Assembly: GCA_000091205.1 (NCBI GenBank)
Contig: AP006498.2
Length of the DNA: 64,000 nucleotides
Direction: 5' to 3' (one strand)
Source of the DNA: Cyanidioschyzon merolae
Lineage: Eukaryota
Made by a program: the position numbers and the translations under genes. The notes below the pieces were generated by a model that saw only the letters and a list, made by a program, of their open reading frames with translations, was not told the DNA's origin and ran no database searches. This document shows positions 1-62,999 of the stretch, piece by piece. The stretch's first letter is position 1. Every line of letters begins with the position of its first letter.

Positions 1-345
1 TACGACTCAACACGGTTTCTAGTTGCCTCCCGTAACTTCTCCACCCACGCATTCTTGATATGTTTAAGAAGACAGGCTTTCACCACCGTCACGTAGGACT
101 CTTGTTTTTCGTGCAGCTTCTGACGTGGGCTCTCCCTCTTCTGCGTCTTTGTCTTTTCCTGTTACTCTCCGCCGGGCACTGTTTTTTGTTTTTTTTTCTG
201 GCAGCCGGCGACACCTGCCTTCCAGGATCCTCCGCTTGCTTTTCCAGAAATTTCCTTTTTTCGAAAAAGAACACGCTTTGAACGCTTCTGTTATAAACTG
301 CGAAAAATCAACCGAATACACTCATTTGAGCGTTGAAACACGACT
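1..345 (-). mobile_element. F-family (TnpB/Fanzor-like element) 5-prime portion, truncated by the window edge
   Basis: Reverse complement of 1-280 aligns base-for-base with the 5-prime 280 bp of the long F copy at 28311 onward (shared ATG...GTCGA(G/C)GATCCTGGAGG start and the aaacatatcaag block). Minus ORF 64-321 and plus ORF 60-281 mirror ORFs 28286-28513 and 28311-28574. Confidence 0.6.
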
Positions 346-409
346 GAGATGAAATAATATATTTCGCTACGATTCCAATGCAAATACACGTTTTACGTTA
401 AAACAACAA

Positions 410-1100
410 GTCAACGAATGGTCAGGATTGCGTTTCCCTTCAACGGCGAGATGCGCGTCGTACCTCATGCCTGCCGGTAATGGAGGTGTGCATCTCGACC
501 GCACTATATGCAGCAAAGAACAGGACTAGCTACTGACTAGCAATGAGATGACCATTTCTTTCCCACTCTACAGTAAACGTTAAAAGGGCAAATGTTGCCA
601 GATCGTCGAAAGCTTACCTTCCAGGCGAAAGGTCCAGCGAGCCGGACGAGTCTCCGGGGGTTCGTGCTTCATGGCTTCCCCTTCGCCACCCCAGTGCCAG
701 GTGCTCTAGTGATATCTGACCAACTCATCCCCGAAGCGGTTTATTCCGGCATTAAGGGTGCTCAGGCAGCGTCTGGGCGTCGCCCTGGTCGCAGCGCATT
801 CGGTGGTACGCCTACGCTGTCCTGTCCCTGTGCAGCATCCGCTCCAGCGGTACAAGCGCTGCGGCGGGTGCTCACCGCAGGCTCGGCGCACGAAAGAACG
901 CACAAATCGACCAGTCTAGCGGAAAGGGAGTCTAAGTAATGGAACCTGGAAGCAGGGTGCACCATGACGGGCGCTTTCCCGAAAGCCGATATCCATCCCG
1001 CAATCCGTGATCCACGGTCGATGGATAGGTTTTCTCAGACCAGAAAAAGAACAAGACACGACGCACATCTCGCCGTTGAAGGGAAACGCGATCCTGATCA
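410..1100 (+). mobile_element. B-family non-autonomous element (MITE-like) with about 40-bp terminal inverted repeats
   Basis: 412-452 (ggtcaggattgcgtttcccttcaacggcgagatgcgcgtcgta) is the inverted complement of 1058-1100. Internal sequence is shared with 27390-28140 (inverted) and 63010-63700. Confidence 0.65.
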
Positions 1101-1149
1101 TGAACGTGTCGCTCTAACGGACAAGACGTGTTAGGGTTGAAGTGGCAGC

Positions 1150-1735
1150 AAGGTCTAGTCTTTCAATGCATTCGTGTTCCACTAGCCTCGTAGAGTATTC
1201 AAGTGGTTTTTCGCGGTTAACAGCAGATGCGTTCCAAGTGCGTTCGTTCTCAAAAAAAATAGAATGCAATGGTATGGACGTGAAAGTCGAGGATACCGGA
1301 GGACCGTCATTGCCGAGTTCGACAAGCAAAATGAGGAAATCCTCTTCCCGCCGACCACCTATCCAAGAAGAACAACGGGTGACGACAACGAAGACGATGA
1401 CGATGACGACGATGCGATATAGGCGAGAAAAGGTGTTTGCGCAACCGGTACGTTTACGAAACTGTGGTGGCACAGAGAGCACGAGTTCGAGGCGTCTTCG
1501 CAAAGCGAGGTTCCACCATCGGCCATAAATGCAAGGAGTTCGTCGACCGAGACCCCAACGTCGCCATCATGATCAGATAATATGCAGAGCGAAAGACTTT
1601 ACCCGAGGAACTGACGCGATCTGACTTGCGGGGCAGTCTCTCAGGGTCTCCGTACACAACCAGAAGCTGAAGCCGACAGCAGGGCCCGGTCCAGCACGGC
1701 AGGGAGGCGTCTGCGGGTAGATATCCATGTATACG
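1150..1735 (+). mobile_element. F-family internally deleted short copy
   Basis: Carries the 5-prime leader plus ATGGACGTGAAAGTCGAGGATACCGG start and a (GAC/GAT)n tract. The 3-prime part encodes ...KCKEFVDRDPNVAIMIR...EELTRSDLRG (degenerate RuvC-III region) and a 3-prime terminus like the other F copies. Confidence 0.6.
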
Positions 1736-3220
1736 ACATGGTCGTGGGACGTTTTTGTTCCACTGACAGGTGCGTTCGAGTTACATAGAACTGAACAGAT
1801 CCACGGACAAAGACGTATGCACTAATATTTCGGCTTCTTTAAACGACGCTGGTCTCTCCTTTCTCTCCGGCGCTGTTCATAGCAGTCGCACGATATTGGC
1901 GGTGGTGGTGTTCAGGCCCCGATTCCATAGCTGCCGACTCTTGTCTAGGCATTCCATGCACTGCCAAAAGTTGCCATCTTCGCTTCGCTTGCCATGTGCA
2001 CCTTCTCTCCACTCTGTTGCGGTGCGCCCGTCGCAGCGTTGCCGCTTGGCTGTGGTCTGGCGGTCACATGCCACCAGCATACTTCGTCATCTGACGGCTA
2101 GTCGCTGACACGTGAACGCTCGCGTCGACGCTCCGTAACTGTGTGTGGCGGGTCCAGAAGCCTCACCTCAGTGCCCTGCTCCGTTCTCGCACCAGCTGCC
2201 GTAACCTACGCTCACGGGCTTCTGCTGGGCGATCGCCTCGGCGAGAGCGCTCCCCGCAGCACACGCCTGCGCATGCTGCTCCCTTCTCTAGACGACTCGT
2301 CGAAGGCGATGCTCTCCAGACAGGAACAGGTACCGCAACGAACCTCCCAGGCCGGCGTGCACGTCGTGAACTCTCGATCTGTCTTCGCTCGCTTCGCGCA
2401 AAGCAGTGACGCACACTCTACTCAAAGTCATCGCAGCGATGAGTAAAGCCCGGGTCCAAGACCCCTTTCCATGCGCAGAGAAGAGACGGGCGCCTCTGAG
2501 CGCATGTTCCGGGAACTGCACCATACTGCCAATGAGTGCCGCTCCGTCGATAGCCCCACATAGAGGTGCCATTGCCTCTCAAGCGAAACTGCCTGTTCGC
2601 AGTGATAAGCTGCGTGACGTTTCAGCGAGAGTCTGTGAACGAGTCGTCACGGCCTCAACCCAGGTATTTTTCGTCGTTCATCCAGCGACGTGAAGTGCTG
2701 CACCCGAGTGTCGTCTTGAAGCAGAGGCATCGAACCTTGGCGCATGCGAGTGATTCGTGCACGCTACACTTAGGAATATGAGAAGCGCAGAGGCTTGTAC
2801 ACATGTCGTGGAAGAAGATGCCTTTTATGTGATGAATCCTTGCTCGTGGGTGCCGCGCATCATTCAAATGACGGTGACGTGACGAATGCGAGCGGCAGAG
2901 GGTCTACAAAGCAACTCCGGATGTGCGACCCTGATTCCTACAGCTACTTCCCAGTCCATGAGCCCGCACTGTTGCACTTTGCATCTACAGGCTGGAGATC
3001 TAAAACAATTGCGGAAAAATCTCAAGCCAGGAACTGCGCGAGCAGCTCTGTATTGCATTGATTCTAACACTGGCGCTGCATCAGGTGCCGCCGCTGTTTC
3101 TCTGCAAAGCTCTGCCGTGCGCTCTCTCTCGCTTTCTCTCTCTACAACCTCCTCTCCGCGCCCTTGGCCAAAACACGTGAACAGAGTGCTGGATGTCGAG
3201 CATAACGCCCCGTTGCGCAG

Positions 3221-3724: not shown

Positions 3725-3849
3725 CACCAACGCCGTTCGAAAGTCGAACGACGCCAACGGTGTACAATAGTGGCGAGTGACCCGCCCTAGAGGAGACGTC
3801 GCCAGTTGATGTGCGGACGCCATCCAATCTTTCTCGACCGGCCACGTAC

Positions 3850-4385
3850 AACTGCTTCCAACTTTTTCTCATATAATTCCACGTTGGGAGGTTCTCCCAC
3901 AAAATTCTCTCTTGTCTACTTTGGAGGTCTATTCTCCAGCACCGCACATCTCCTTATATCGATAGCTGCGTTAAGGTCTCGGTTCACAAACTCGATACGT
4001 TTCTTGCCATCATTGGTTGTACTTACTAATGCAAGTAGCCGTCGAACTTTTGCCCTCCTTTCCATTTGCTCGTCTGTCAGCGGTCCGTACTTTTTTATAT
4101 CCTCAGGGCTCCACTGACACTTTTACATTTCCACTCTCTGAGGTGTGCATCCGAGTTCATGGTGTGTACACGATGTTCGGAACTCATCTACAGGTATCGT
4201 GACGAAACGCCTTGCGCACTCCTTTTACGTTCTTGTCGATGGAGCTGGTGTAGTCCCTTTTTGGGTCTTCCATCGGCCTGCTCCGTACGCTACTACGAGC
4301 CTCTGACTTTCATCCTCCTTCAGGGCACTCAGCTGATTGAAGAAGTTTGCGAACGCCCGCTGCCTCCCACCGTATAGATGCATAC
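3850..4385 (-). mobile_element. F-family 3-prime-region fragment, left arm of an inverted pair
   Basis: Plus ORFs 3806-4117 and 4017-4202 match the minus-strand reading of 30145-30564 (GLFSxTAHxxIxIxALxSRxxNSIRFLP, HGVYTMFGTHL). Confidence 0.5.
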
Positions 4386-4489
4386 GCTGACGAGCCCACC
4401 GGGGCTTTGTATACCCTTTCTACAGCTCCTCGTTATGAGCAGCGCGAGTATTCATGAACTCCAGAAAAGCCTGAAAGTCCGCTCAACGG

Positions 4490-4910
4490 CTCGTCACGTT
4501 ACCGATAGATGAGTAACGAACGACTTTCGTCCACCATGAGTTGGGACGTACACTTCAGAAGGTAGAGATGGAAAAAGCCAGCGGGGCGCTCCGGAGATGA
4601 AAGAGTACGGAGAGCTGCCAGAGCAGGAAATTGCAGTGAGGGCACGAGGCCGTGGACTCCTTGCATTCATAAGTTCCACCAGCGGCGGAGCATGCAAGGA
4701 GTTCGTGAACCGAGACTTTAACGCAGCTATTAATATCAGAAGATGTGCAGTGCCGGAGACGAGACCCGAAGAGCTGACGCGATCTAATTTTGTGACACAG
4801 CCTCTCAGGCTCCAAGTGTACAGAGAGAAGCTGAAACCGATAGCCGAGGGCAGGTCGAAAAAGACTGGGAGATGTCTGCGCGATAGTAGATACACACAAA
4901 TACCGCCCAT
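4490..4910 (+). mobile_element. F-family 3-prime fragment retaining the RuvC-III motif
   Basis: ORF 4597-4938 reads GLLAFISSTSGGACKEFVNRDFNAAINIRRCAVPETRPEELTRSNFVTQPLRLQVYREKLKPIAEGRSKKTGRC, with D-x-NAA-x-NI. Confidence 0.6.
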
Positions 4911-5372
4911 GGCCGCGAAACGTTCTTCATTTTGCTGAATGTATAGATCATCTTCCGCCGGATGCACCAGCGATGTCCCCGGCACAAACGCTCCAACAGA
5001 AGATGTATTTCTTTTGGCAAGCCGTCGCACGGAAGACTTGCTCGGATACCGATGTTGGACGTCTGGGTCTGCATAATATTCTCAAACGAATGCTGATCCA
5101 GATTCTACCGTGGCATCTCTCGCAACGCATGAACTTCGCGCGAACCCGTTTCATCGTGTGCGTACGGCTTCCGCAAACCCCCTACATTTCAAAATCCGCT
5201 CACTCGGTGGTTGCCAACGCGGGGGTGAGGCCAACCTCATGTCGCCCTCTTTGAAACGCGCCTCCGGGGCGGAGCGTTCGCCACTCGGGTGATCCCAAAG
5301 ATGGATACCCCCGCAGCGATGCATATCGGTGGAGCGCATCCCAAGGAAGCGCGCCCCTATGATTTTCCGTCA

Positions 5373-6524: not shown

Positions 6525-6603
6525 GCCCGACCTACCCGAGCGGTCTTCAACAGCCTCCAGTTTGCAGTGTATTCCGAAAGACTTGCGAAAAAGGAGTTTC
6601 GTG

Positions 6604-6685
6604 ACGGCGACGCGATTCGAACGCGCGTGAGCTGTCGCTCATTGGAACCTTACTCCAACGCCTTGGACCACTCGGCCACGCCGTC
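6604..6685 (-). tRNA. tRNA-Leu(AAG)-like, type II with long variable arm
   Basis: The reverse complement GACGGCGTGGCCGAGTGGTCCAAGGCGTTGGAGTAAGGTTCCAATGAGCGACAGCTCACGCGCGTTCGAATCGCGTCGCCGTC folds by eye. There is a perfect 7-bp acceptor stem, a GCC/GGC D-stem with a GAGTGG loop, an anticodon stem TTGGA/TCCAA with loop GTAAGGT (anticodon AAG), a GAGC/GCTC variable arm, and a GCGCG/CGCGT T-stem with TTCGAAT loop. Position 32 (G) and the discriminator (C) are atypical. Confidence 0.55.
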
Positions 6686-9860: not shown

Positions 9861-10949
9861 TCAGTGCTGAACAACCTGGGGTGAGCCTGTCTGCCATGAG
9901 CGAACGAGCGCCTCGGCGACGCGCGTAGCTGCGAGGCCATCCAGAGGCCCGGGTGCGCCTGCGGGTAGGGTTCCCTTTCGAACTGCTTCAGCGAAGACCT
10001 CCATCTCTCGTTGGAAGGCCTGTTCGAAACGCTCCCTGAAAACGGGTGCAATGCGCTCGGACAGGGCTCCGGCTGGATCTGCAACGCGAATGGCGTCTCC
10101 CGGTCGCTTGAGTTCTCCTAAATACACGGAACCGCGCTCACACACCAGTTCGCTCGTAACATTATATCCGTAGTTAAATGCGCGACAAAAGTGTGCCGAC
10201 ACCAGAGCGCCGCTATCCATCTCGAGCAGGGCCAAGGCGTTGTCTGCGTCGCCCAGCCCCGCCAGCTGCGGATACACGAGCGAACGACAAACGACGTGAA
10301 CCCGGTGGACCTCAGCACCGAGAAGCCAGCGGGCCAAATCGATATCATGCACAGCAAGGTCAAGCAGCATGGAATTGTAGCCAAGATCTCGTTGATATTT
10401 CGCGGGATACTCGGCGTCACCGGAGGTGCACTTGAGCACCGTCGGTTTCCCAAGCGCCCCCGACTGTACCAGTAGTTTTCCTCGCGCGTACGCCGGATCA
10501 AAGCGGCGCATAAACCCGACCATGAAAACTTTCTTTCCAAAGTCGCCGCGCTCAAGTCGAGCGTGCTCCACTTGTGCAAGCGCCTTTTCAACGCTCGCAG
10601 CTGAGAGGCCAAGCGGCTTCTCACAAAATATGTGCTTTCCAGCTTGGGCTGCTCGAACGATTCGTTCAGTATGATCCGCAGGAGCGGTAGCCACTACGAC
10701 GGCATCCACTCTCGGACTGGCTAGAGCATCCTCGTACGACTCGAAGCGCAACGCACACGGTACGTACAGGCGCTCCGCAAGCTCGTGGAGAACCTCGGAG
10801 CGTTTCGAGGCAAGAGCGAGCTCTACTCCGCCAAGTCTCCGCAGAGACTCAGCGTGTATGGTGCCCATCTCACCCAATCCCAGTACAGCTATACAAATAT
10901 TCCGGTCCATTGTACCAAGAACAAAAAGCTGCGCTGCTTTGTAGTACAA
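9861..10949 (-). CDS. Gfo/Idh/MocA-family NAD(P)-dependent oxidoreductase
   Basis: N-terminal Rossmann motif ICIAVLGLGEMGTIHAESL and the family EKP motif (HIFCEKPLGLS). The start is probably the Met of MDRNICIAVLG. Confidence 0.75.
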   Translation of the reverse strand: MYYKAAQLFVLGTMDRNICIAVLGLGEMGTIHAESLRRLGGVELALASKRSEVLHELAERLYVPCALRFESYEDALASPRVDAVVVATAPADHTERIVRAAQAGKHIFCEKPLGLSAASVEKALAQVEHARLERGDFGKKVFMVGFMRRFDPAYARGKLLVQSGALGKPTVLKCTSGDAEYPAKYQRDLGYNSMLLDLAVHDIDLARWLLGAEVHRVHVVCRSLVYPQLAGLGDADNALALLEMDSGALVSAHFCRAFNYGYNVTSELVCERGSVYLGELKRPGDAIRVADPAGALSERIAPVFRERFEQAFQREMEVFAEAVRKGTLPAGAPGPLDGLAATRVAEALVRSWQTGSPQVVQH

Positions 10950-11159
10950 GGCGAAATGCGGTCAAGAAGCCTGGAGACAATTCCGGGTGCGGGCTCTCCG
11001 CGAGCACAAGCCGACGTTCTGGCTCTCTGAATGGACAGGGTCCAGTACGGGATGGTGCCGGCTTCACTAGATGCCGATAACCATGATGCATTCGAGGAGC
11101 TCTGCTTCTAGTCTTCCAGGTAAATTATGCTGGATTCTGCAGGTTCGTATCATCAAAAG

Positions 11160-11676
11160 CTTTTTTACGGTTTATAGTGAATGCATTCGAAGTGCGTTCA
11201 TTCGAAGTGTAAAAAATCCATAGGAAATATATGGACATGGAGGTCGAGGATCCTGGTGGACCCCCATCGCCGTGCTCGACAAAGGAAACAAAAAAAGTCC
11301 TCTTCTCGCTGGCCATGGATCGAAGAAGAGCGCATGACGGAGAAGAACAGGGGGAATAGGCGAGAAAAGGTGTTTGCCGGACGGTACGTTTACAAAACTC
11401 TAGTGGTACAGGGGGCACGAGTTCCAGCTATCCTTGCGTTGATGAGTTCCACCATCGGCGGCAATAGAAGTATGGAGCTCGTGAACCGCGACTTCAAAGC
11501 TGCCATCAATATCAGACGATACGCGTTGCTAAAGACGAGACCCGCGGATCTGACGCGATCCAACTTTGCGGGACAGCCTCGCAGGGCCTAACTTTACAAG
11601 CAGACGCTAACGTCGATAGCATGAGGCCCGTCTAAAAAGGCCGGGTGGCGTCCGCAGGTGGATATTCGTTTACCGA
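11160..11676 (+). mobile_element. F-family internally deleted short copy
   Basis: Conserved 5-prime leader (gcattcgaagtgcgttcattc) and ATGGAGGTCGAGGATCCTGGTGGACCC start. ORF 11181-11591 ends ...ELVNRDFKAAINIRRYALLKTRPADLTRSNFAGQPRRA. The conserved 3-prime terminus ggtggatattcgtttacc is present. Confidence 0.6.
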
Positions 11677-13395
11677 CTTATGTGTATGCTTTGAAACAAC
11701 ATCCCCAGGATGCATGATGGAGATCGATAGCCAGCTGCAGGACCTCAGTTCCCTTTGAAATGCTAAAACATTTCGTTAACTCCATGTTCAACTAGCCGTC
11801 TGGGACAGAGTCTTGATCCGATGAGCCCCTCGTGTATCGAACCTACCATGAGCACCGGCTGTGAAGCTAGATGCTTCGCCAGCGCAATTGTTTCCTCGAG
11901 ACAGAACAGCTCGGCTATACCTTTGCGGGTGTCGGCTCCAGTGCGCTGCTGCTCCCGCTGACGTGATGCGCAGCTACGGAAAAGCGATGTAGAGGCAGCC
12001 CCGATGACCGGGAGCGTTTGCCCATATGCGGAAACCTGGCTCAATGCCATCATCCCGCCCGACACACAAGCGGTATTACGCTTCCTGCTGCGCAGAGCAG
12101 TTCCGATGCAGCCAGCTGCTGGGAGTCTCTCCACGAGCATATTCGAGAACAGTTACGGAAAATTCATGAAAGACGCTCGATGAAGTGGAATATGGCTGTG
12201 AGCATGGCAGCAGTCAAACGCCAGAAGGCAAACGTGCCAGAATCCAACATAGAGAAGCGCGCTCAACAGTCTTTGCGTACAGCCCCGCTCCCATCTCTTG
12301 TCGCTGCTCATGCATGGCGTACGACGGGGTTGCGACGGTGCGCACCGAACTCCATCCAGCATGGTGGAACTGAGCGAGACATTTGGCAGCAGATGCACCT
12401 TCAGTTAGGTAAGCAGAGAAACAGACAGAGCCCGCCATTGACCGCGCTAGAAGATTCAGAAGTAGCTTGAAGAAGCTGCTCCGTCATCCCAGTTGCTTCT
12501 GTTTCCAACACAACAGGTCATACGCTCGCTCAGTGGAATCGCCATGAGGCACCTGTCCGCAGTGATCATTCTCTCCAGCTGCAAAGGACTCGGAGCACGC
12601 CAATTCTGTGCTTTCCCGAGATGGCAGCACAGCGTTCGGGATCACCGTTATCTGGATGACCCAGATCGTACGAGCATTGATGCCAGAGGAGGTCGACGGG
12701 TGGACTGTGCGTTCACTGCAGCCTTCGATCCGTCTGTTGACGTTTAGAAACGGACGTCGTCTGCCCAAGCACTCACGGCGGAGCACCTGCACCGAAGCTA
12801 CGGCACCCAATAAGTTGCATGCTGCCCTTTCCCGCCCGTCCGTCCGCGAATGCACGCTGCCAATGTTTTTCGTTTCAAAGAACGTTTACACTAACCAGTG
12901 ATACCCGACTGCAAGCTCGATATCAGCGATCGGAGAAGCGTTTGTCGTCCCGCCGACCTTCAGGCTCCATGACTTGCACTTCACCTCCGAGATACTGGAC
13001 ATTTATCACGCTGCCGATACGCGCAGTCGAGCAGGTTGCCGCAACGCTGTGTATGTTGACTCGGCGAAGGGGGCGGACGGGCGGCTGTCTCACTCAGAGG
13101 CAGCGCCCCGGACTCTGCATCATAACCTCTTTCTGTGTTCCGAACAACCCGAGACCTGCATACTCCACCAAAGCTCGGTTCTCCCAAATAGAACCACTTT
13201 GCATCCATACACCTAGATCGGGATAGATGTTTCGTCTTGCACTCAATACGCTAGCACCTATGTCAGAATGAATACGAACTGGATTACGAACTCGGGCGTA
13301 CTCTATAAAGCTTAAACCTCTTCCCGTTACCGCCAGCATCAGCCTTTGCGAATTTTTCCTGCAATTGCTTTTTCCTTGCATGTTATCTTCAGCTT

Positions 13396-14030
13396 TCAGT
13401 AGCTACGCTCTCGTGCCCATCTAGCTCCATTGTCAGCGGTCGATGGATGCCCATTGCAACGTGAAACTCCCGATTCCGCCGCTTCTGGTTGTATGCTATT
13501 CATGTCATGGACTGGAAAAAGGTTGCGGTCTACGCTTCGCTTGCTATTTCCATCTTCATCGCAACCAGCTTCGGTGCGTCTTTTGCAGCCGTGATACTTG
13601 GCTGTGGTCAGGTGTTCGCATATATCCACGATTTTTCCTCCTCCGGGAGCTGCTTACTTGCACATGAACGTTTGCTTCATCGCTCGGTTCATGCACTTGA
13701 CGGGTACAGCAGCCTCAACACAAGGCCCTGGTCCTTTTGCGCACCAGTACCCATATCCACTTATCACGAGCTTCTTCTGGGCAAGCCTTTTGGTGAGGTC
13801 CATATCTGCTGCATGCGCAAGGGTACGCTGTTCCATTCGATACAGAATTTGTGGAACGCGATTTTGTTCATGATGAAAAGAAAACCAGAAGGGATATTCA
13901 GACAGGCGAACAAGTCTAGACACTTAGATACGCCCATGCTGCTTTGGAGCAAAGCAGTGACACGCTCTCCGCTGGAAACCATCACCGCGATGATGGAGGT
14001 CCGAGTCCGATACCCTTTTCCATGAACACA
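13396..14030 (-). mobile_element. C-family relic (diverged TnpB-like remnant?)
   Basis: Minus ORF 13654-13923 reads ...ILYRMEQRTLAHAA...VPVKCMNRAMKQTFM, followed by Cys-rich CEHLTTAKYHGCKRRTEAGCDEDG (13396-13629). It is homologous to 22755-23111, 33278-33965, 43500-44110, 48100-48600 and 51335-51945. Confidence 0.45.
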
Positions 14031-14686
14031 GAAACGAAGGCAGCCTCTGGGAATGTATCCCGTGATATGTATCACGCTGCAGTGGAATCATATTTCTTGG
14101 ACGGCGACGATGAGAGGAAGTTTCTCTTTCGAACGGAGTCGATGATTGCACATGAGAAAATCAGGGAACTTTCTGCATGAACTTGTGGAGAAGCCTTCAT
14201 GGGCTGATGTCGAGCTTTTTCCCTCGTCAATCCACCGGCGTGAATCACGGCGCCTGCGAGTCCCTCTGAGGCAAAAACATTGAGATTTTGAAGAATGCAC
14301 GATCCGGCCATGCATCAGGGAAGGAAAAACAATGCGGAGCTCCTTGTACGCATGTCCTGGATAATTATATTGGTTATTTTACGAACCCGGTGTTCGACGG
14401 CATCGCGAATTATCCTGATGAAGATGCCGTGACGAATTCTAGCGCCAACGGGCCGAGGTAGTTTCTCAGAAAACGCGACCACGCATCCTAAACCTACGGA
14501 TGAATCGGCAAGCCCCAAGTGCTGCACTTCGAGTCTCGAACCTGCAGATATAAAAAACAGTTCGGAAAAATCGAAAGACAGGAATAGAACGAAAAAACTG
14601 TGTTCTATTTTAATCTGAAATTGGTGCAGCTCTTTTGAACGCCTGGACGGTCCCGAATACCTGTAGCGTGCCCAAAAGAAGCACTT

Positions 14687-20439: not shown

Positions 20440-21480
20440 GCCCCCATGGCCCGAACGGAGATCGTGCAGCTCAGTCGTCCATCGTTGCTATAGCCCTTGA
20501 ACTCGATTTCGTTCCGTCCCTGCCGCGTGTCATCGAATGCTTGTTCGCAGTGTATTGCAGGAGATCGAAATCGCTAAGCAATATGCCGCATAGATCTCGG
20601 ACGAATTGAATGTAGTATATATTCTTTCACTGAAGAGTGCAAGGAGGACTGCATTCTTCTTTCAGGTCAGTCGTACCACAGTACTCCGATAACAGAGGAA
20701 CACTGAAACAAAGAACTACATGCGCTCCGCGCCTTACATCGATATTATCAATGTGTGTTTGCAGTCCGTCGAAGAAACGCGACCCGTTGGTCACATTTCG
20801 GAAAGCAAAAGCGACGATGGTAGTCACCACGGGCGTCTGTGTGGCTCAACAGCTTGCTCGTGTGGTCCTGAATGCATTGGGATGCAATCCAGTAAAAGAG
20901 ACCTAGTTCACGCACGGCGTTCTTCCACACAAATCGCAACGAAAAAAAGTTCCTGGAACGTCGCGATCAGTATGAAGTACCCGGCGGTCGGTTTGTTTGT
21001 TCAGTCGGTGACACTTGCTTCGGACGAGAAGGTCGGATCGTGTATGAGTATTCGTGGGGCAGGGCGCCCATTTTATGTACAATCGAACTCGAATAGAACG
21101 AGGAAATCATAATCTGTTCTAGCTTTAGTGTATTCAAGTGGTGGCTCCAATTTCGCTCATAGAGAGGGCTCATATTAGAGCGCTTACGTTGTCGAATCAT
21201 TGAAGACTTTTCCCTGACGCCCGGCGACGCCCTTCAATTGGAAGACATGGTACTTCGCAAGTCCCGTTGCGTTCGAGCTTTTGTCGAATCGATCGAGGAG
21301 TAGAGCTGCTTTTCATTTCTCCGTACGCTCCGTGATTTAACCCCATCGAGGGAGTGTTTCGTATTGTGATACGTAATGACAGCTCCACTGGGTGAATCGC
21401 TGAAGCGTGCAGCACACGGTGACACACCAGGCCACATGTCGTCGTCCTTATGCAAGTCCTTCTCTCTCTAGGAAGGTACT
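20440..21480 (+). pseudogene. D-family: Tc1/mariner-superfamily transposase remnant (degenerate)
   Basis: About 1.0 kb homologous to 61500-62520. At 21200-21360 a frame reads LEDMVLRKSRCVRAFVESIEE*SCFSFLRTLRDLTPSREC. This is the degenerate counterpart of the DNxxxH...PxYxPxLxPxxE catalytic block visible in copy 2. Confidence 0.5.
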
Positions 21481-21985
21481 CGCCTAACGGCATAAACAAG
21501 TATGTTCTTTTGAAGAAACATGAAATTCAAGGGAAAGTTACGGACATGGATGTCGAGAATCCTGGAGGCCCGATGTCTCCGGATCCGAAAGAAAATATTC
21601 GCCTCCCCGACCATGGAGCGAAGAAGAGCAATTCATGACGACGACGACGATGATGACGACGATGCGATATAGGCGAGAAAAGTTGTTTGCTCGACGGTAC
21701 GTTTGCGAAACTGTAGTGGCACCGAGAGCACGAGTTCGAGGCATCTTCGCAAAGCTAAGTTCCACTATTTGCAGTAAATGAAAGGATTTCGTTTACCGAG
21801 ACCTCAACGCCGCGATCATTATCAGACAAATGTGCAGTGCGAAAGACGATACCCGAGGAACTGACGCGATCTAACTTCGCAGGGCACTCTCTCAGGCTCA
21901 AAGTGTGTCTAGATAAACTGAAACCGATAGCACGTGGCTGGTCAAAAAAGGCTGCGAGGCTTCTCAGGGTGGATATTCATTTACT
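21480..21985 (+). mobile_element. F-family short copy fused downstream of the D relic
   Basis: ATGGATGTCGAGAATCCTGGAGGCCC start and a (GAC/GAT)n tract. ORF 21837-22175 reads EELTRSNFAGHSLRLKVCLDKLKPIARGWSKKAARLLR, and the terminus is ggtggatattcatttac. Confidence 0.6.
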
Positions 21986-22754
21986 CTATGGTCCTGGGAT
22001 ATTTTCTGTTTCACGGATCACATGTATACAGCGACTAGTTCAGATGCCGATCGGCGTCCTGTCCAACGCTAACTACACCAGTTCCAGGATAAAATGTGAC
22101 ATGGAACTATTCGCTCTGTTTCTGTCTTGCGATTTCAACCGAACTATTTTAGATGTCCAGGCTCTGCGTTCGTAGTCTGGCAATAAGCGCTTACGGATTC
22201 ATACGCAGTTTTTGGGATTTTCGGTCGACCATCCGCAGTGGCTCCATCGATGTCGTGGCGCTGGAATTCGTTACGCCACAGGATTCAAGATCATTCGCTA
22301 CGCCCTCGAACAGGGATTTGTAAAATAACCTGTATTATAATCCAATGGATAAGCAGAAGCCTTGACTCTTCTCTCCCAGTTGCGTACAGCATGCTCAAAT
22401 CAAAAGACTTTAGCATTTTTGGATCTTTCAGTGCCAATGGAACTCGTGAGTGCAGCAGTTCGCCCCACTGGATAAACGAGGAAAAGAGTGCAACGTTGTC
22501 GTCGACTATGGGCTTGTTCACAAACTCATATCAAATGCATACGGACATTTTCACGTCATAGATACGATTGCGTTCAAAAGAAATATCGTTTTCCCTTAAT
22601 GTCCATCGACGAGACGGGATTCGACAGCAGCATGAACGCGTTCAGAAAAAATCTGCCCCGAGAGCATCCGCCGCTTTTTATGTATGGGAAAGGACCAGGA
22701 ACCGGGACTTGAGTCGTCAAAGCGATTACATTCAGTGGATAGTTCGTCAGCGCT

Positions 22755-23330
22755 TTGCACGAAGGGCGCGAAGCCGGATCAAGATTTCACGATTACCTCT
22801 TTGACCTGAGTTTTAGTTTTTGGTACCGTTTTCGTCGTCGACGACAGCGCGTTCTAGTATCCCTCTATCAAATGGAGCAGCGTACGCTTATATATGCTGC
22901 GGAGAGAGTCCGCACCGAGGGGACCTCTTTGAGGAAAACGCGTGGTCATAGGATATCCGCTGGACGCATAAACGGGAACGAGCACCGTTCAGTGCCGTCT
23001 GTACCCGCCAAGGGCATGAACCGAGCGATAAAGCAAGCATTCATGCGCGACTGGGCGGCGCTTGGGGGAGAAGATCTAAAGGGTGCAGAGTTATACCTGA
23101 CCAGTATCTAGTGTAACCGCTGCGCGGGGCGCACAGAAACTGTATACAAAGAGAATGAAAATCACAAGCGAAGCGTAGATCGCAATGATCGTCTGTCAAA
23201 GAAGTACATCGACAGCATCCGAAAGCAGCGGAGTCAGATCCCTAAAGCTACCATCGACATCCTCCGACTGCTGGCAAGAGAACCGGAGGGAAAAAAGTGA
23301 CCAGCATATTCAAAGCCAGCACGTAAGGGA
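22755..23330 (+). mobile_element. C-family relic, plus orientation
   Basis: ORF 22755-23111 reads ...LYQMEQRTLIYAA...VPAKGMNRAIKQAFM. The downstream frame reads CNRCAGR...RSVDRNDR, a CxxC followed by a degenerate D-R-N stretch. Confidence 0.4.
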
Positions 23331-27389: not shown

Positions 27390-28140
27390 TACACTGATTT
27401 TTTCGATGACAAAACGTTTACATTGACCTTGCATCCCGGATTGCAGGATAGATAATGGTAATCAAAGAAGTGTCCAACATGATGCACCTTACCTCCAAGT
27501 TCCATGACTTATTCTCGGATGTATTGGTCGTTTCGTATGTTCTATCGTGCGCCAGGTACCTGCTTTGAGCACCCGCCTTGGTACCTAAACTGCTGTTACG
27601 GATGCTGCACGTAAACAGAGCGGCTTTGCCATACCACTGAGCGCTTCGGCTGGAGGAATGCTTCACCTAACATGGAGTCGGGATCCATTATAATCCTGGG
27701 TGCCGGTAAGCTGTGCAGACAGACGTACTGTCTGCGGCAGCGCGAAGCGATGTACAAGGAGTCCACTGCGACCGGGGCGATCCCCAGACGCAGCGTACCC
27801 GCTCCTAGTCTTGGAATAAACTGCGTTTTGGACGAGCTGCTCAGGTCCATTCACAGCACTGGGCGCTGGAAAGAGCATGAATGACTGGTCTAGCAGACAC
27901 GTCCGGCTCGCGAGACCCTCCTCCTATAGGGTAAACTTTCGACAGTGTGGAAAGCGTGTCCGCCTTTTAACGTTTATCGTAGATGGGGAAAGTAATCATT
28001 TTATTGTCGCTACTTAGTGGCTTCTTTCTGTTCTTCGTTCTGAATAGAGCGCTCGATGCGCGAACCTCCATACCTGGCAGGAACTGAACATGTCGCGTAT
28101 CTCGCAGATGGAGGGAAACGCGATCCTGACCGCTCCTTGC
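27390..28140 (-). mobile_element. B-family copy, inverted relative to the copy at 410-1100
   Basis: The TIR at 28100-28140 (ggagggaaacgcgatcctgacc) is the inverse of the 412-435 TIR. 27850-28000 matches 550-830 and 63050-63290. Minus ORF 27418-27666 (GAQSRYLAHDRTYETTNTSENKSWNLEVRCIMLD) matches plus ORF 63301-63618. Confidence 0.6.
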
Positions 28141-28239
28141 CCTATTTCTCTAAAGGGCGAGTTGTATTCTCGTTAACTTCATAGCCAAGTATAGTTTTCA
28201 ATTCGATTGCTTTTCAACCCTCAAGTAAAAATATTCGAT

Positions 28240-30656
28240 TGACTTTTCGCAGTATATAACAGAAGCGTTCAAAGAGCGTTCTTTTTCAAAAAAAATAAAA
28301 ATGAAAAGTTATGAGAAAGCAAGTCGACGATCCTGGAGGCCCAGTGTCGCTGGGTGCCAGACAAAAAAACGAAAAACTGTGCCTAGTCCAGAGGAACAGG
28401 AAAAGGCAAAGAAGCAAGGGCAGGAAGACCGACGTCAGTGGCTGCAAGAAAGACGACAGTACGACGAGACGGTGGGGAAAGCCTGTTTTCTTAAACATAT
28501 CAAGGATCCGCATAGAGAAAAATCGCGAGAGGTCATTAGGAACCGTGTCGATTCGTACTCCAGGAGGAGTATAAAGTCGTCCTCAGGACTAATGCATCTG
28601 GTGAAGGGGATGTACGAAGACGTGATGGACATGGAAACAGTCGAGGTTCCGGAAGAATTCTTCGACAAGACCTATATTCGTCACCTGATGCTTGGTAGAG
28701 CGGAAGCGCAGAGGGAAAAAGAGCGGATACACGTCCTCACGAAAACCATCCTTTTTACAGCTTCGAGGGTGCTCGAAACAAGGGTGACCGGGATATTCAC
28801 GACAATGGGGCGATGAAGTAGATCACGAACCTGAAGAACCATTTGACAGTGAACCTCGAACGTTTCATGAAACGCACCGTGTTTGCACTCTACTCGGGCC
28901 TATCTCGCAATGGAAAATGGGCGATTATCAATGGCATCACGAAAGATCGCAAGCGTGAAGATGAAGTCGAATTCGTCGACAAGAAGGCATCAAACGAGAG
29001 CACGAATGAAGCTTCTGTAATCCGTGCGGCTATAGAAGAGCATCGTGCAGTCCTGGAGCTGGCGAATCCAACAGACAAGATATCAGAGTTGAAAGAAGCT
29101 AAGGAAAGATACTATCGCCTCGTCCTGCGCTATTTCGTGTTTCTGGACCAAGAACTCGAACGCAAGGCAGAGGTGAAGCAGCGTGAGGAAAGCAATGAAG
29201 AGTGGGAGAGACGGAAGGCTTTCCTACTGGGGAAGCGCCTCAACGTGGTTCCAATGTGCAACATCAAGTCACATTTTGTGACTATCCACTCCAGAATCCT
29301 TCACGGCATCATGGAGGAGATTAGTCCGGAGTTCGATGTTAGCAGGGAGGAATTCTCCGGTGAAAACCGGGAGACGTACTGGAAGAATATCTTCGATTTC
29401 AAACATCTCAAAGTGAGCAAGCAAAAGGTATTCAATGGGATGATCGAAACCGATGGGGTAGCCTTGTGTGTACACTATCGGCGGTTGAAAAGAGATCGTC
29501 CAGTTCCACCCTCGGCTTCGCCCGTGACGAAGGATGAAGAAAAGAAGGAGGCGGATCCTGCGACGCAGGAGGTATAGGATAAAGACCTTGTCGTTGACGT
29601 GACGAAGGATGAAGAAAGGGAGGAGGCGGATCCTGCGACACAGGAGGTGGAGGATAACGACCTTGTCGTTGACGCGGTGAAGCATGAAGATGAGAAGGAG
29701 GCGGATCCTGTGATGCAGGAGGTAGATGGGAACGACTTTGTCGTTCGTGCTGACCCCGGAAACACAAATATCGTAATCATCGCAGTATCCAAGCGTGCGG
29801 AAGACGGTACCGACGGTAATTTTCGTCAGAGACATGCGTCTTTTGAGGTTCTCGAAAATGATATATTATCGAGAATCCGGCACAATGAATGCAAGGAAGA
29901 AAATTGAGACATGGAATGCAGGAATGAAGGATCACCTGGAAACTTTGAGCGAGGTGACTAGCCGAGAGGCGGACTTTCAAACTTTTCTGAAATTCATGGA
30001 AGTTCGCGTTGCTCATTGGGATGCGCTGTGGAATGAGTATGCAAAGCCCCGGTGGGCTCGTCTGCGTATGAATTTGTATTTTGGGAAGCAGCGTGCATTC
30101 GCGAACTTTTTCAATGAGCTGAGCACCTTCAAAGAAGATGAAAGTCAGAGGCTCGTAGTGGCGTACGGAGCAGGGCGCTGCGCGCCCAAAAAAGTATATA
30201 CACCAGCTCCAACGACAAGAACGTACAAGGAGAGCGCAAAGCGTTTCTTTACGATACCAATAAGATGAGTTCCGAACATCGTATACACACCATGAACTGG
30301 GGTGTACATTTCAAAGGGTCGAGATGGAAAAGTGCCAGCGGAGCCCTGAGAATATAAAAAAGTACGGAGCGCTGACAGATGAGCAAATGGAAAGGAGAGC
30401 GGAAGTTCGGGACTACTTGCATTCGTAAGTACAATCAATGGCAAGAAACGTATGGAATTTTTGATCCGGGACTTTAACGCCACAATCAATATAACAACAT
30501 GTGCGGTGATGGAGAATAGACCACCAGAGCGAACACGAGAGAACTTTGTTGGACAACCTTTCAAAATGAAACTATATGAGAAAAAGTTGAAACCAGTAGT
30601 AGGTGGCCGGTCGAGAAAGACTCGATGGTGTTTGAACGTCAGTTGGAGACTTCTTG
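28240..30656 (+). pseudogene. F-family long copy: disrupted TnpB/Fanzor-like RuvC-nuclease gene (about 790 codons over five frame-shifted ORF pieces)
   Basis: ORF pieces are 28301-28816, 28843-29577, 29599-29907, 29795-30268 and 30452-30661. [17 protein letters not shown] is a RuvC-I-like GxDPG block. LVVAYGAGRCAPKK...PAPTTRTYKE is a post-RuvC-II-like region. The C-terminus GLLAFVSTINGKKRMEFLIRDFNATINITTCAV carries D-x-NA(A/T)-x-NI, the RuvC-III signature. There are in-frame stops at 29578 and about 30400. Confidence 0.6.
29524..29748 (+). repeat. 75-bp tandem repeat x3 inside the F long copy
   Basis: Units at 29524-29598, 29599-29673 and 29674-29748 encode ...[22 protein letters not shown] / [25 protein letters not shown] / [29 protein letters not shown]. 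The last unit ends in the RuvC-I-like block. Confidence 0.7.
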
Positions 30657-30838
30657 ACTAGGGCGGGTTTCTCGCCACTACTGTACACCGCTGGCGTCGT
30701 TCGACTTTCGAACGGCGTTTTGCGATGGTTTGATCGTTGCAACGCTCCAGGAGCAAACAAGGCTTGGAAACGTGCACGCTTTTCATGGAAAGAGCGCAGC
30801 GCTGCTTGCAGAGAGAGCCTTTGATGCGGTAGAGGTGC

Positions 30839-43437: not shown

Positions 43438-44780
43438 TCTTTCCGCAGTCATCAACACCAGCCTTGGCGGATTCTCTGTGACTGCTTCCATTAGATTTCT
43501 CGTAGCTACGACTTTAAATACGCCGGTCGATCACCTCCCTCAAGATCTGTCGTCAGAGCTCGACGGATATTGATGCCAGCATTAAAGTCCCGATTTCGCC
43601 GTCTCAGGCTGGTGCCAACGCATGCCATGCCCAGGCAAAAGTTGCGATCTTCGCTTTGTCTGCCATCTCCATTTTCTCTCCAGAGCAGCATCGATACGCC
43701 CTTCGCAGCAGCGACTCTTGGTAATGGTCACGCTTTTCCTGTTTGTCCAATACGCTTCCTCCTCTGAGCGCCGCCCTGTGGCGCGTGAACGCTTGCCCCA
43801 ACGCTCACAGCACATGCACGTGCTGGGTACAGAACCATCCCGCAAGTGCCGTCCTCCATCCACGCGCCCGGTACCGTACCCTGTGATCGACAGCTTATTC
43901 CGGGTAAGTCTGCGGCAGGTGCTCTGCCCGCTGAACACGAAAGCGCACGCCACTCTATTCGACAAAGGATTTGTGGATCGCGATGTTGTTCACGATGAAA
44001 CAAGTTCCGGACGGGAAACCCGCAGCAGCCAGAAGACTGAGGAGCTTCGAACAATCCACGCTACACTGGTGCAACGCGGTGACGCACTCTGCGCTGGGGG
44101 CGAGCGCTGACGTCAGTGCGAGTCCAAGACACTTCTCCGTGCAAGCAGAAGCGCTGGAGCCTCCGAGAGCCTCCGAGAGCCTCCGAAAGCCTCCGAGAGC
44201 CTCCGAAAGCCTCCGAGAGCATACCCCCAAGAGAGATATCGTGCTGTTGTCGAACCCTATTTCGTGGATGGCCACACAGAGTAGAGAATAACTCCTTCGG
44301 ACGGAATAGATCGTTCGGCGTTCGCAGTCCAGTCCGGAATCGGCACAAGCTCGCGAAGGAGTCCTCAAGGGAAGGCGTCGAGTTTTTTGGTCGCCAGTCC
44401 ATCAGAGCAGATTCCTACGCGCTCGGGTAGCCTCGAAACCAGAGAACTCTAAAAATTGAAGAATGCGTCATTTGAGCATATTACTCGTAAGGAAGGAGTA
44501 TGAGTGGCGTCTTCTGCGTATGAATTGGATGATGGTATCGGTTATTTTACGAACCCTTTTACGGGGACGTCGCGAATGACCGTGACTCTGGGGATGAAAC
44601 GCAGTCCAGCGGGAACGAGTCGAAGGGGTCATTCCGGAAAGACCACCGATGATCCTGGAGTTATATGAAAATCCCAAACCGATTGCTGCACTTTGCATGC
44701 CGAGGACGTGCAGCTAAAAGAATTTCGGGAGAATTGCAAGGCAGGAAGAGAGCGAAGAGTTCAGTGTTTCATTTGAATCT
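43438..44780. repeat. 1.3-kb direct repeat, copy A (composite of F-like RuvC-III fragment, C-family relic and minisatellite)
   Basis: Near-identical to 51274-52575, with only a handful of substitutions plus extra minisatellite units. Identical ORFs appear in both copies: 43506-43691 = 51341-51526, 43622-44110 = 51457-51945, 43582-43965 = 51417-51800. Confidence 0.85.
44157..44220 (+). repeat. 10-bp minisatellite (GCCTCCGAGA/GCCTCCGAAA), about 6 units
   Basis: gagcctccgagagcctccgagagcctccgaaagcctccgagagcctccgaaagcctccgagagc. The paralogous position 51995-52018 has only 2 units. Confidence 0.8.
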
Positions 44781-44868
44781 GGCTCGGCTGTTGTGCACTC
44801 GTCCAGAGGAGGCACCGAAATGCCTCGGAGAACGCTCGCACTGCACTCATCTTAAGGGACTCGTGGCA

Positions 44869-48099: not shown

Positions 48100-48600
48100 T
48101 GGGGGCTTCTCAGCGATTGTTTCCGCTTCCTCTCTCCTGTCCACGCCATTCGGTACACTAGTCGCTACAGTTCCGTTATCAGCTGTTGGAAGATGTGGAT
48201 GGCAGTGACAAAGACCCGATTTCGCTCCTTCTCGCTGTTGTCGACGAATGCAGTGCAGAGGCGGCAGTTACAACCTGCGCTTCTGTTGCTATTTTCAATT
48301 TTTTTGTTTACAGCCTCGGTTCGCCCTTCGCAGCAGTGGTACTTGACTGCCGTCACGTGTTCTCGTACGTCCATCTCACTTTTACCTCGAGCACCGCCTT
48401 GTGGTGCGTGACGGTTGCTTCATCACTCAGAACATGCCGTGGGCTGGTACGGAGGACTCCCCATAATGTCCTTCTCCGTTTCCGCACCTGGTCCCGTACC
48501 TAACGATTACGGACTCCTTCTGGGCGGTACAAACGGCGAGTGCTCTGTTCCCTGCACATGCGAGCGCATCCTGTTCCATTCGATAGTTGATGTTTAGAAA
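48100..48600 (-). mobile_element. C-family relic
   Basis: Plus ORFs 48186-48503 and 48415-48597 share H.R..HRSVH..DGY...LLGK...LFH-type frames with the other C copies. Minus ORF 48165-48374 is Cys-rich (KYHCCEGRTEA...SAGCNCRLC). Confidence 0.4.
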
Positions 48601-49406
48601 GAGACGTTGTCCATAATGAACCGAGTGAAGGAAAAATATTTCAGGCCGGAGATCAAGTCGGGATACTTAGATCCGTCTACGCCCTCGGCATGGGAAACGG
48701 TGACTCACGCTCCACTGGAAGCGATCGCTGGAATGCCTCGATTCCCAGTCCAGGAACTTTTCCATGGAAACAGAAAAGACGGGAATCGCTGGATCCGCAA
48801 TCGGTGAGAGGTTCATGCTGCTGCCGAATCCTGTATTTCGGATAGCCTGAAAGAGAGAAGGATTTACCTTTCGAACAGAGTCGATCATTAAATGTGACAA
48901 GTTAAGCGAAATTTCAGCATGAACTTCTTAACAAGGCCCTGATGGACGTTGTCGAGTTTTTCTCTCGCCAATCTAGCTATGCGAAGGGTTGCGACAACAA
49001 AGTTGCCTTCAAACAGCAATATGGAAAACTTGAGGAACGCATGATTTGAGCATGGAACACCTAGTGACTTGGGAAGATTGGAGGCTTGCGCGTGTGAACT
49101 GGATAATGATATCGTCTATTTTACGACCCGCCGTTCGAAGGCGTTGCGAATCATCTTAATTCGTGTGAAGTTACGAATTCCAGCAGCAAATAGTCGAAGA
49201 CGCCATTCCGAAGACACAACCGAGAATTCTAAAATCTACATATGAACCAGTAAGTCCTCACAGCTGTACTTTAAAATGTCGATGCTTAACGTCTAAAAAC
49301 AAGTGCGAATAAAAGTCGAAGTGCAGGAACATTGCGAGTAGTCCAGCGTTCCATTTTTAATCTGACGCAGTTGTGGAGGGACAATGAATCCCGGAGCGAC
49401 TTTGCC

Positions 49407-52575: not shown

Positions 52576-52804
52576 GAAGGTTGTAAAGTGCGATTGGTCA
52601 ACGATACTTGCACTGCCCATCAAGAGAGTTTTACGGATCATCGTTTCCCCACCGCTGCCAAAAATTTGCAACTAAGCATTGCGAGCTGGATCATGTTCTA
52701 CATCGTGTAAAATCGATCCGCACTTGTCCAACAGAGGCATTCGTCCGTGCCCCTGAACGAAAGCCTCGCCTGGAATTCTCAACGTGAAGGTTCTCCCGTC
52801 CGTG

Positions 52805-62520: not shown

Positions 62521-62996
62521 GTTTATTTGAAGGAATAAAAAAATCCGAGGGAAAATTAAGGACATGAAAGTCGGGGATCCTGGCGAGCCGTCATCGCCAG
62601 CTGCCGGAAAACAACGAAAAACTCCTCCGCCCGCCCACCATCGAGCGAAGAAGGACAAGTGACAAAGAAGAAAACAGAAGTTTAGCTAGAAATGGTGTTT
62701 CCTCCAACAGAACAATGAATAGGCTGTTGTAGCATATACAGCATGAGTTCTGGGAGTCCTTCCAAAGGTGAATTCTATCAGAGGCAATAAACGCATGGAG
62801 TACGTGAAGCGAGACTTTACGCTGCTACCAACATCATACGCTATGTGGTGCTGTATACGAGACTACAGGAGCTTAGGCGATATGAGTTTGTAAGGCAGCC
62901 TCTCAGGGACTTGGTGCAAAGAGAAAAACTGAAGCCAATGGCAGGAGGGCGGCCAAAAAGGCTGCGAGGCGTCTTCGGGTGGGTGTCAATTTGCCA
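62520..62996 (+). mobile_element. F-family short copy fused downstream of D copy 2
   Basis: GGACATGAAAGTCGGGGATCCTGGCGAGCC start. A 3-prime part encoding ...RDFTLLPTSYAMWCC...LRDLVQREKLKPMAGGRPKRLRG (degenerate) and the terminus gggtgggtgtcaatttgcc. Minus ORF 62428-62658 mirrors the other copies (DDGSPGSPT). Confidence 0.55.
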
Positions 62997-62999
62997 AGG

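Follow-up and report, generated by a model that had tools for sequence, protein, structure and literature searches.

The DNA examined here, referred to as the window, is a stretch of 64,000 nucleotides from contig AP006498.2 of the red alga Cyanidioschyzon merolae (NCBI GenBank assembly GCA_000091205.1). It is nuclear DNA of strain 10D, as six of its ORFs matched exactly C. merolae 10D proteins encoded on one 908-kb chromosome (BAM81788–BAM81798). The window carries four short plus-strand repeats, designated c1, c11, c21, and c62, together with a near-full-length copy and several fragments of a larger element (Table 1). An earlier note on this DNA had placed the four repeats at about 1150–1735, 11160–11676, 21480–21985, and 62520–62996, and had read them as derivatives, internally deleted and without an open reading frame (ORF), of a TnpB-like transposon that it called family F. 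That reading was right in substance, with the parent being a Fanzor1 element whose 5′ and 3′ modules are kept. The repeats are real: they aligned with one another over their whole length at 65–75% identity (blastn E values of 1e-20 to 1e-50), far beyond chance, and the start motif (ATG followed by a GTCGAGGATCCTGG-like stretch), the RuvC-III motif RD.NAAINI, and the ELTRSNF..KLKP tail were readable in the copies. Judged by its sequence, family F is CMe-1A, published as a Fanzor1 element of C. merolae (Bao & Jurka 2013, Mob DNA 4:12, PMC3627910). That study describes CMe-1A as ~3 kb long and present in ~150 copies with about 80% identity to the consensus; it has no terminal inverted repeats (TIRs), its target site duplications (TSDs) were undeterminable, and its 5′ 635 bp constitute a separate element, TE-N2_CMe (PMC3627910). 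The 3169-bp CMe-1A consensus from Additional file 2 of PMC3627910 served as our reference, and "consensus N" denotes a position on it. As set out below, the short copies are probably decayed, non-autonomous internal-deletion derivatives of an old CMe-1 lineage.

Table 1. CMe-1-related features of the window, with positions counted from its first nucleotide
Feature	Position	Strand	Remarks
Short copy c11	11101–11676	+	80.9% identity to the 586-bp consensus; 1 frameshift, 2 stops
c11 leader	11101–11230	+	
c11 ATG	11231	+	N-terminal remnant to ~11405
c11 deletion junction	~11405/11406	+	
c11 RuvC-III motif NRDFKAAINI	~11484–11513	+	in C-terminal remnant
Short copy c1	1148–1764	+	CMe-1 homology upstream to 1051 (consensus 683), perhaps downstream to ~1790
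c1 (GAC/GAT)n expansion	~1377–1412	+	
Composite copy c21	20505–22014	+	leader 20505–~20580, ~900-bp insert X, element resumes at ~21465/21498, full tail to 22014
Composite copy c62	61523–62998	+	leader 61523–~61606, insert X, element resumes at ~62517, tail ends at ~62998
Near-full-length CMe-1A copy	27404–30730	+	consensus 1–3169, 84–86.5% identity; consensus match 27404–30717
TE-N2 module of full copy	~27404–28046	+	
Fanzor unit of full copy	from ~28050	+	
ATG of full copy	~28311	+	aligns with consensus ATG; 28301 is an in-frame ATG further upstream
RuvC-I motif ADPGNTNI of full copy	~29760	+	
RuvC-II motif DEFRTS of full copy	~30260	+	
RuvC-III motif RDFNATINI of full copy	~30470	+	
3′ hairpin of full copy	~30690–30715	+	
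5′-truncated fragment	4491–4940	+	consensus 2692–3087; 3′ tail of short-family type; relic of the full-length parent subfamily
5′-truncated CMe-1A-type fragment	3731–4497	-	consensus 2400–3169, 85.7% identity; intact 3′-terminal hairpin
Inverted CMe-1A 5′ part	1–1040	-	consensus 4–1150, truncated by the window edge; head-to-head with c1, 10 bp away
Solo inverted TE-N2_CMe	62999–63638	-	consensus 4–~643, 81% identity; abuts the truncated 3′ end of c62

Hot-spring metagenomes were scanned with a 19-mer from the element (TAGGCGAGAAAAGGTGTTTGC), and 18 loci were returned. They comprised strain orthologues of c1, c11, and c21, four new distinct copies (L004, L005, L011, and L016a), and one locus without a CMe-1 match (L009), probably a chance hit. 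The 19-mer is part of the N-terminal coding sequence (it encodes EARRQRLQE) and lies ~45 bp upstream of the deletion junction, for which it had first been mistaken. The scan still gave only loci of the short architecture, L009 aside, and none had an upstream ORF. The four window copies and four metagenome copies make eight distinct short copies, which have unrelated flanks and pairwise identities of 64–76%, and their alignment yielded a 586-bp short-family consensus. In order, the ~590-bp unit consists of a leader of ~120 bp, a start codon with 57 codons, the last ~95 codons including RuvC-III, and a short 3′ tail; RuvC-I and RuvC-II are not kept. Its 5′ end is GT[CG]TTT[CA]A (consensus ~787–790) in 6 of 8 aligned copies, and the same start is found in c21 and c62, but ~1 kb upstream, before their insert. 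In the window the units begin at 1148, 11101, 20505, and 61523, so the true starts lie 2 bp (c1) to ~60 bp (c11), and for c21 and c62 ~1 kb, upstream of those assigned before.

At the other end, ggtggatattc(a/g)tttac had been proposed as the conserved terminus. This motif is internal, as in six copies homology runs ~35–40 bp past ggtggatattcatttac, to 1764 in c1, to 22014 in c21, and likewise in four metagenome copies. Neither c11 nor c62 has this terminal tail: in c11 the final ~40 bp of the family tail are absent or diverged, and c62 lost its tail because the inverted TE-N2_CMe copy abuts at ~62999. On CMe-1A, the short consensus aligned to positions 790–~1075 and ~2810/2840–3092 at ~70–75% identity, and single copies covered 832–937 and 2849–3088 (c11), ~868–965 and ~2890–3082 (c21 and c62), or 683–938 plus the 3′ part (c1). 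Consensus 1–~787 is missing from the short copies, and 3093–3169 is replaced by a diverged, shortened tail. The short copies therefore did not keep "exactly the two ends", as had been stated; most also lack ~145 bp at the 5′ end of the Fanzor unit that starts at ~645 (see below). Going by these alignments, they are best placed within the CMe-1 lineage as an older, distinct deletion subfamily.

It is rather improbable that the copies were spread through segmental duplication, or through ectopic recombination within a repeat-rich region; retention of the two modules would then say nothing about cis requirements. The window does hold other duplicated blocks (e.g., 43439–44781 and 51274–52576, 96.6% identity), c1 and c21 share ~30 bp past the terminus proposed earlier, and two derivatives on the metagenome contig L005, f1 and f2, resemble a local duplication. 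These ~30 bp, however, are part of the element, since four other copies hold them too; eight copies have unrelated flanks on both sides, with homology ending at the same two positions; and those from the metagenomes sit on separate large contigs.

At the deletion junction, the RRQYDEMVV codons (consensus ~1075) are fused to consensus ~2840, which reads ..QRARVRG (RRAKVRG in CMe-1). In this way ~1.77 kb of ORF was lost in frame, N-terminal codon ~57 being joined to codon ~646, and the short consensus has a single frame of ~150 codons through the junction. The eight copies are collinear through it, and the family-specific substitutions and the 3′ tail are also common to all. The same junction in 8/8 copies indicates descent from one deleted ancestor that was later multiplied, rather than independent deletions. 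The four window copies, which the earlier note had counted as independent, thus share a single ancestral junction. The (GAC/GAT)n tract that it had located at the junction lies ~65–75 bp 5′ of it, in the K/E-rich N-terminal region, and is present only in c1 and c21, the two copies most closely related to each other; being confined to this pair and off the junction, it represents a microsatellite that expanded locally rather than a feature of the junction.

An independent origin of every short copy from a full-length element, e.g., by abortive gap repair, is very improbable. Eight main-family copies share junction, substitutions, and tail, which refutes this origin for the four window copies, and the metagenome scan returned no full-length element with the short-family 19-mer. 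In its favor are the existence of two different junctions (that of the main family and that of L005 f1/f2), 5′-truncated fragments with other breakpoints (consensus 2400 and 2692), and a possible microhomology (TGG..AAAG) flanking the main junction, read by eye from the alignment only. The second junction occurs in L005 f1/f2, in which the leader contains the insert that c21 and c62 also carry (see below), extends to consensus ~900, and continues directly into ~2745 and a short-type tail. As f1 and f2 are near-identical and probably arose by local duplication, they were counted as one event. They represent a second deletion event with a different junction and the same two modules kept, which gives some independent support to the earlier proposal.

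The 3′ ~290 bp was present in every derivative, and the leader was kept in two separate deletion events. Furthermore, the window contains seven 3′ modules, three of them outside the short copies, at 4491–4940 (+), where the earlier note had already recognized one, 3731–4497 (-), and 30395–30717 (+). Two of these, corresponding to consensus 2400–3169 and 2692–3087, are 5′-truncated fragments that retain the 3′ end only, and because of them retention is better established at the 3′ end than at the 5′ end. Hence, the proposal that both ends are needed in cis stands in part: the second derivative keeps the same modules, but 3′-only fragments exist and the 5′ terminus is mostly lost. Fragments of two subfamilies meet head-to-head at 4491–4497, forming a quasi-palindrome of ~1.2 kb (3731–4940) between the SDR and cytochrome b5 genes.

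A common 3′ end combined with varying 5′ extents (683 in c1, ~787 in most copies, 2400 and 2692 in the fragments) would also be expected if spliced or truncated Fanzor transcripts had been retro-copied. No poly(A) tract was found at any 3′ end, however, and the leader start is identical in 6/8 copies. In C. merolae, moreover, introns are very few and retroelements show very little activity, and a retro-copy origin is hardly credible.

Rather than ~0.5-kb copies, as previously described, c21 and c62 are 1.5-kb composites, in which short-consensus positions 1–~70/87 are followed by an insert of ~900 bp, termed insert X, and the consensus is resumed from ~80. The ~1 kb common to the upstream sides of c21 and c62 seemed at first to speak against the 5′ end being defined, but this stretch is the insert within the leader, the true 5′ end lying upstream of it. 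Homology between the two copies begins exactly at the family 5′ end and not before, indicating that a unit bounded by the family ends was copied with the passenger inside. Insert X was located at window ~20581–21464 and ~61607–62516 and, on the minus strand, at 2006–2917 and 10860–11771 of L005. This ~900-bp repeat was found only in leaders of family-F derivatives, of two derivative types, and tblastn detected no Fanzor similarity in it. It may be a transposon that prefers this leader or part of an unsampled element variant.

In the near-full-length copy of the parent element, the ORF is disrupted by frameshifts. A 42-member family profile matched the solved Fanzor1 structures of PpFz1 (Parasitella; 9cf0, E=3.4e-22), SpuFz1 (Spizellomyces; 8gkh, E=4.5e-19, profile positions 10–595), and GtFz1 (Guillardia; 9cer, E=8e-10). 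This broad profile was needed: a narrow 14-member profile gave no Fanzor1 match in the PDB, and single-sequence searches with the reconstructed protein and three homologues (phmmer against the PDB, hmmscan against Pfam) gave nothing relevant. The RuvC catalytic columns were invariant in the family alignment, namely D398 (DPG), E569 (DEFRTS), and R635/D636/N638/A640. Between RuvC-II and RuvC-III, where the C4 zinc finger is expected, CMe-1 reads TSYTHHELGC...C and ..LALVSTT, with no clear CxxC...CxxC, and more distant family members read RGLLWC.ST; the metal ligands are not assignable from sequence. The Fanzor ORF contains, at 29523–29745, a tandem repeat with a 75-bp unit (3 copies, 85% match) in the part coding for the region just 5′ of RuvC-I, and the unit number seems variable among homologues: one in the published consensus, about two in protein P0001, and more in P0003.

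The Fanzor1 family is abundant in Cyanidiales genomes and hot-spring metagenomes (1265 representatives, E<1e-3). The precomputed Pfam label on part of it (proteins P0001–P0120; the L022 gene at 10001–11677) is PF26935 DUF8286, with weak matches, and no TnpB/OrfB Pfam family matched the CMe-1 Fanzor1 family proteins. As Pfam gives only DUF8286 and no TnpB/OrfB match, the family is easily overlooked in routine annotation.

Full-length copies in the metagenome were of two kinds, starting either at consensus 1–6, with TE-N2, or at ~645 (blastn alignments begin at 648–670). The latter, which begin on the consensus just past the TE-N2 module, have unrelated upstream flanks, and the former have TE-N2_CMe directly upstream of the Fanzor unit. 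The positions concerned are L025 ~1830, L027 ~2150, and L028 ~1090. These starts at ~645 define the Fanzor unit proper as ~645–3169, and indicate, from the alignments, that the published consensus consists of TE-N2_CMe and a ~2.5-kb Fanzor unit end to end. The end-to-end placement of TE-N2 with the Fanzor unit is a hint of end-specific insertion. Among the short copies, c1 begins at ~675–683, within ~30–40 bp of the ~645 end.

At the 3′ end, full-length CMe-1 copies terminate in a strong hairpin, CGTCGTTCGA-ctt-TCGAACGGCG, with a folding energy of -11.7 to -12.7 kcal/mol and z scores of -2.9 to -5.3 in 4/6 copies. As DNA it has a 10–15-bp stem, and copies that differ in sequence keep the stem nonetheless (CTGCCGTTCGA..TCGAAAGGCAG in L027 versus GGCGTCGTTCGA..TCGAACGGCG in the window). 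It was located at window 30690–30715 and 3733–3760 (-) and at the L025 and L027 3′ ends, a region that is blurred in the published consensus. In the short family a weak tail hairpin remains only in c1 (GTGGGAC-N6-GTTCCAC; z = -2.25) and L016a (z = -2.0).

The alignment of all copies, by which the earlier note had proposed to define the exact termini and any flanking target motif, placed the family boundaries as given above and revealed no convincing flank motif. The 5′ flank ends in TA in 4/8 copies and CGAT follows the 3′ end in 3/6, neither of which is convincing. No TIRs were detected: the first 60 nt of the consensus scored 5 against the reverse complement of the last 60 nt, compared with 5.7 ± 1.1 for shuffled sequences. 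Nor was a consistent TSD found, as the flanks of the five copies with both ends shared only inconsistent words of 3–6 nt, a test that the uncertain 3′ end limits.

The short copies are heavily decayed. Each has 1–4 frameshifting indels and 0–3 in-frame stops, and all are pseudogenes. Identity to their own consensus is 75–81% for the short family versus 84–86% for the CMe-1A copies in the window. Both c11 and the 3731–4940 fragments occur on three metagenome contigs that run collinear with the window at 99.2% identity, and c1 occurs on a contig of ~92% overall identity (L014). L014 1658–4702 matches window 1–3051 at 91.8% overall and at 98.3% across ~1.45 kb around c1 (window ~651–2135), a mosaic pattern that suggests recombination between lineages or a chimeric assembly. 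In Cyanidiococcus yangmingshanensis, and in a lineage whose proteins are 79% identical, the syntenic loci of 17 kb contained neither CMe-1 nor short-family sequence. Gene order there is kept (DSPc, protease IV, LSM, GFO/IDH/MocA, lipase, SDR, and cytochrome b5), and the LSM-GFO spacer, which holds c11, measures 3.77 kb in the window versus 0.95 and 1.75 kb in the syntenic loci. The syntenic intergenic DNA is too diverged to align, and no base-exact empty site is definable. This pattern of presence and absence indicates that the copies are lineage-specific additions, older than the ~8% split.

In characterized Fanzor1 loci, omega-RNA is produced from the right end, may overlap the 3′ end of the ORF, and reaches ~15–20 nt into the flank (PMC10432273; bioRxiv 10.1101/2023.08.09.552727). 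Since omega-RNA maps to the right end, the retained 3′ module of the short copies is a candidate for encoding it. Furthermore, Spizellomyces punctatus has 134 ORF-less Spu-1 "ghost" loci of ~550 nt with functional omega-RNA (Saito et al. 2023, Nature 620:660, PMC10432273). The short copies likewise lack an ORF, are multi-copy, and keep the 3′ region, and both element ends are kept in part. They might therefore be, or have been, ghost loci for guide RNA, with a promoter or leader and the omega-RNA 3′ end, served by a Fanzor protein in trans and taking the guide from the 3′ flank. Loading of such an RNA would aid persistence or spread by homing; this possibility is compatible with copying of a deleted unit and adds a function to it.

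In agreement with a ghost function, the 3′ ~290 bp is kept by every derivative here, and the 3′ 266 nt of the CMe-1A consensus folded moderately better than shuffled sequences (z = -2.5). The consensus fold of six full-length 3′ ends reached -50 kcal/mol, but even there the covariation term was unfavorable (+4.2). Ten short-type 3′ modules reached only -16.7 kcal/mol in RNAalifold with a positive, unfavorable covariation term; the short consensus folded no differently from shuffled sequence (z = -0.2); the ~45-bp tail deletion takes out one arm of a long helix predicted in full-length copies; and all copies are heavily decayed. An Rfam scan of the window found nothing at the 3′ modules. The folding models thus gave no evidence for a conserved RNA from the short relics and weakly suggest one from the full-length element, and we regard guide-RNA function of the short copies as unlikely, while allowing it a small chance. 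The sole Rfam match in the window was a tRNA (RF00005, 50 bits) at 6602–6685 (-).

These data give the following history. One ancestral CMe-1 element lost ~1.77 kb of its ORF in frame, after which the ~590-bp unit was copied to many unlinked sites, once with a ~900-bp passenger, and all copies have since decayed. The copying was presumably done in trans, by the same machinery, whatever its nature, that mobilizes full-length CMe-1. Of the two modules, the 3′ end would be the part most consistently needed; it bears the terminal hairpin in full-length elements and the omega-RNA in characterized Fanzor1 loci. The leader may have been retained as a second cis site or as a promoter. The copies are presumably inert now.

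Several observations weigh against this history. Most short copies begin at ~787–790, ~145 bp inside the ~645 end, so that the present-day 5′ terminus is not kept, and the short-family tail aligns to CMe-1A only with a ~45-bp deletion by which the terminal hairpin is mostly lost. No transposase, TIRs, or consistent TSD were found for the short family or CMe-1, and transposition is thus deduced rather than shown. The presence/absence polymorphism among strains, for which the earlier note had suggested looking, was not seen; strains at 99.2% identity and the lineage at ~92% hold the same copies. Finally, the query of the metagenome scan was taken from the element itself, which makes the copy census biased and incomplete.

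A further idea, tentative and of low probability, is that the short family, the second derivative, and the 3′-only fragments are footprints of Fanzor-guided homing. Fanzor would cut beside the right end, and repair would copy the element from the 3′ side; incomplete or template-switched repair would then leave 5′-truncated and internally deleted copies, and those with a promoter or leader and the omega-RNA region could keep spreading as guide-only ghosts in a red alga. If true, this would account for CMe-1 having no transposase, TIRs, or TSDs.

Other repeats were also present in the window. A RuvC-III-like motif with an RP..L tail, with the minus-strand translation ...CLGMACVGTSLRRRNRDFNAGINIRRALTTDLEGGDRPAYLKS*, was observed at ~43540–43640 (-) and ~51375–51475 (-). 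Judging from this translation, the region looks to be what is left of another, distinct TnpB/Fanzor-like family, and it is present twice because it lies inside the 96.6%-identical duplicated block mentioned above. Another dispersed repeat family, with 65–70% identity, occurs at 1955–2498, 13506–14232, 48192–48973, and 22999–23185 (-); it is unrelated to CMe-1 by blastn and partly linked to the RuvC-III-like relic region at 43566–43880.

Compared with known systems, the short family is closest in origin to CMe-1A itself, with which it shares genome and lineage and the lack of TIRs and of a determinable TSD, whereas it differs in its own 5′ boundary (~787), the ~45-bp tail deletion, and greater divergence. 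The ghost Spu-1 loci of S. punctatus are likewise ORF-less, ~550 nt long, and multi-copy, and keep the element ends, with the right-end region that codes for omega-RNA; they differ in having inverted repeats of 30 nt, a CA motif that is conserved, sequence that is well conserved, and functional omega-RNA (PMC10432273). In the C. merolae copies, TIRs are lacking, parts of the ORF itself persist, decay amounts to 20–25%, and no conserved RNA fold was detectable.

The earlier note had drawn an analogy to the left and right ends of IS200/IS605 elements and to MITEs (miniature inverted-repeat transposable elements). It holds at the functional level, as the palindrome-associated transposable elements (PATEs) derived from IS200/IS605, and MITEs, are also short and internally deleted, retain sequences of the termini, and rely on functions provided in trans; it fails for structure, with no TIRs, consistent TSDs, or known transposase. 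IS200/IS605 right ends and Helitron 3′ ends carry a hairpin, as does the full-length CMe-1 3′ end. In contrast to a MITE, the short family gave negative results in the tests for both TIRs and a fixed-length TSD, and in contrast to IS200/IS605, no TnpA is known for CMe-1, and most copies are without the present 5′ terminus. The Fanzor1/Helitron2 elements CRe-1, CRe-2, and CRe-3 of Chlamydomonas, which are 5′-truncated, have more 3′ than 5′ ends, frequent internal deletions, and a 3′ hairpin (Bao & Jurka 2013, PMC3627910). CMe-1 resembles them in Fanzor1, in the excess of 3′ modules in this window, in internal deletions, and in the 3′ hairpin; it differs in that no Helitron Rep/helicase or Helitron termini were identified and the TSD pattern after TTTT was not seen.

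PMC3627910 covers the ~3-kb CMe-1A and the 635-bp TE-N2_CMe, not a ~590-bp deletion family composed of leader and 3′ module. No description of the short family was found in the papers searched, and Repbase may list it under another name. The ~590-bp ORF-less derivative family apparently is undescribed, whereas its parent CMe-1A and ORF-less Fanzor1 ghosts are already known. What Fanzor does for its element in its native host was left open by Saito et al. 2023 (PMC10432273). The surviving parts of CMe-1, i.e., the 3′ ~290 bp in all derivatives and the leader in two deletions, narrow the area in which cis signals and omega-RNA are to be searched for. C. merolae, a model red alga that is genetically tractable and has a fully sequenced genome of very small size, could serve to test the role of Fanzor for its element in the native host.

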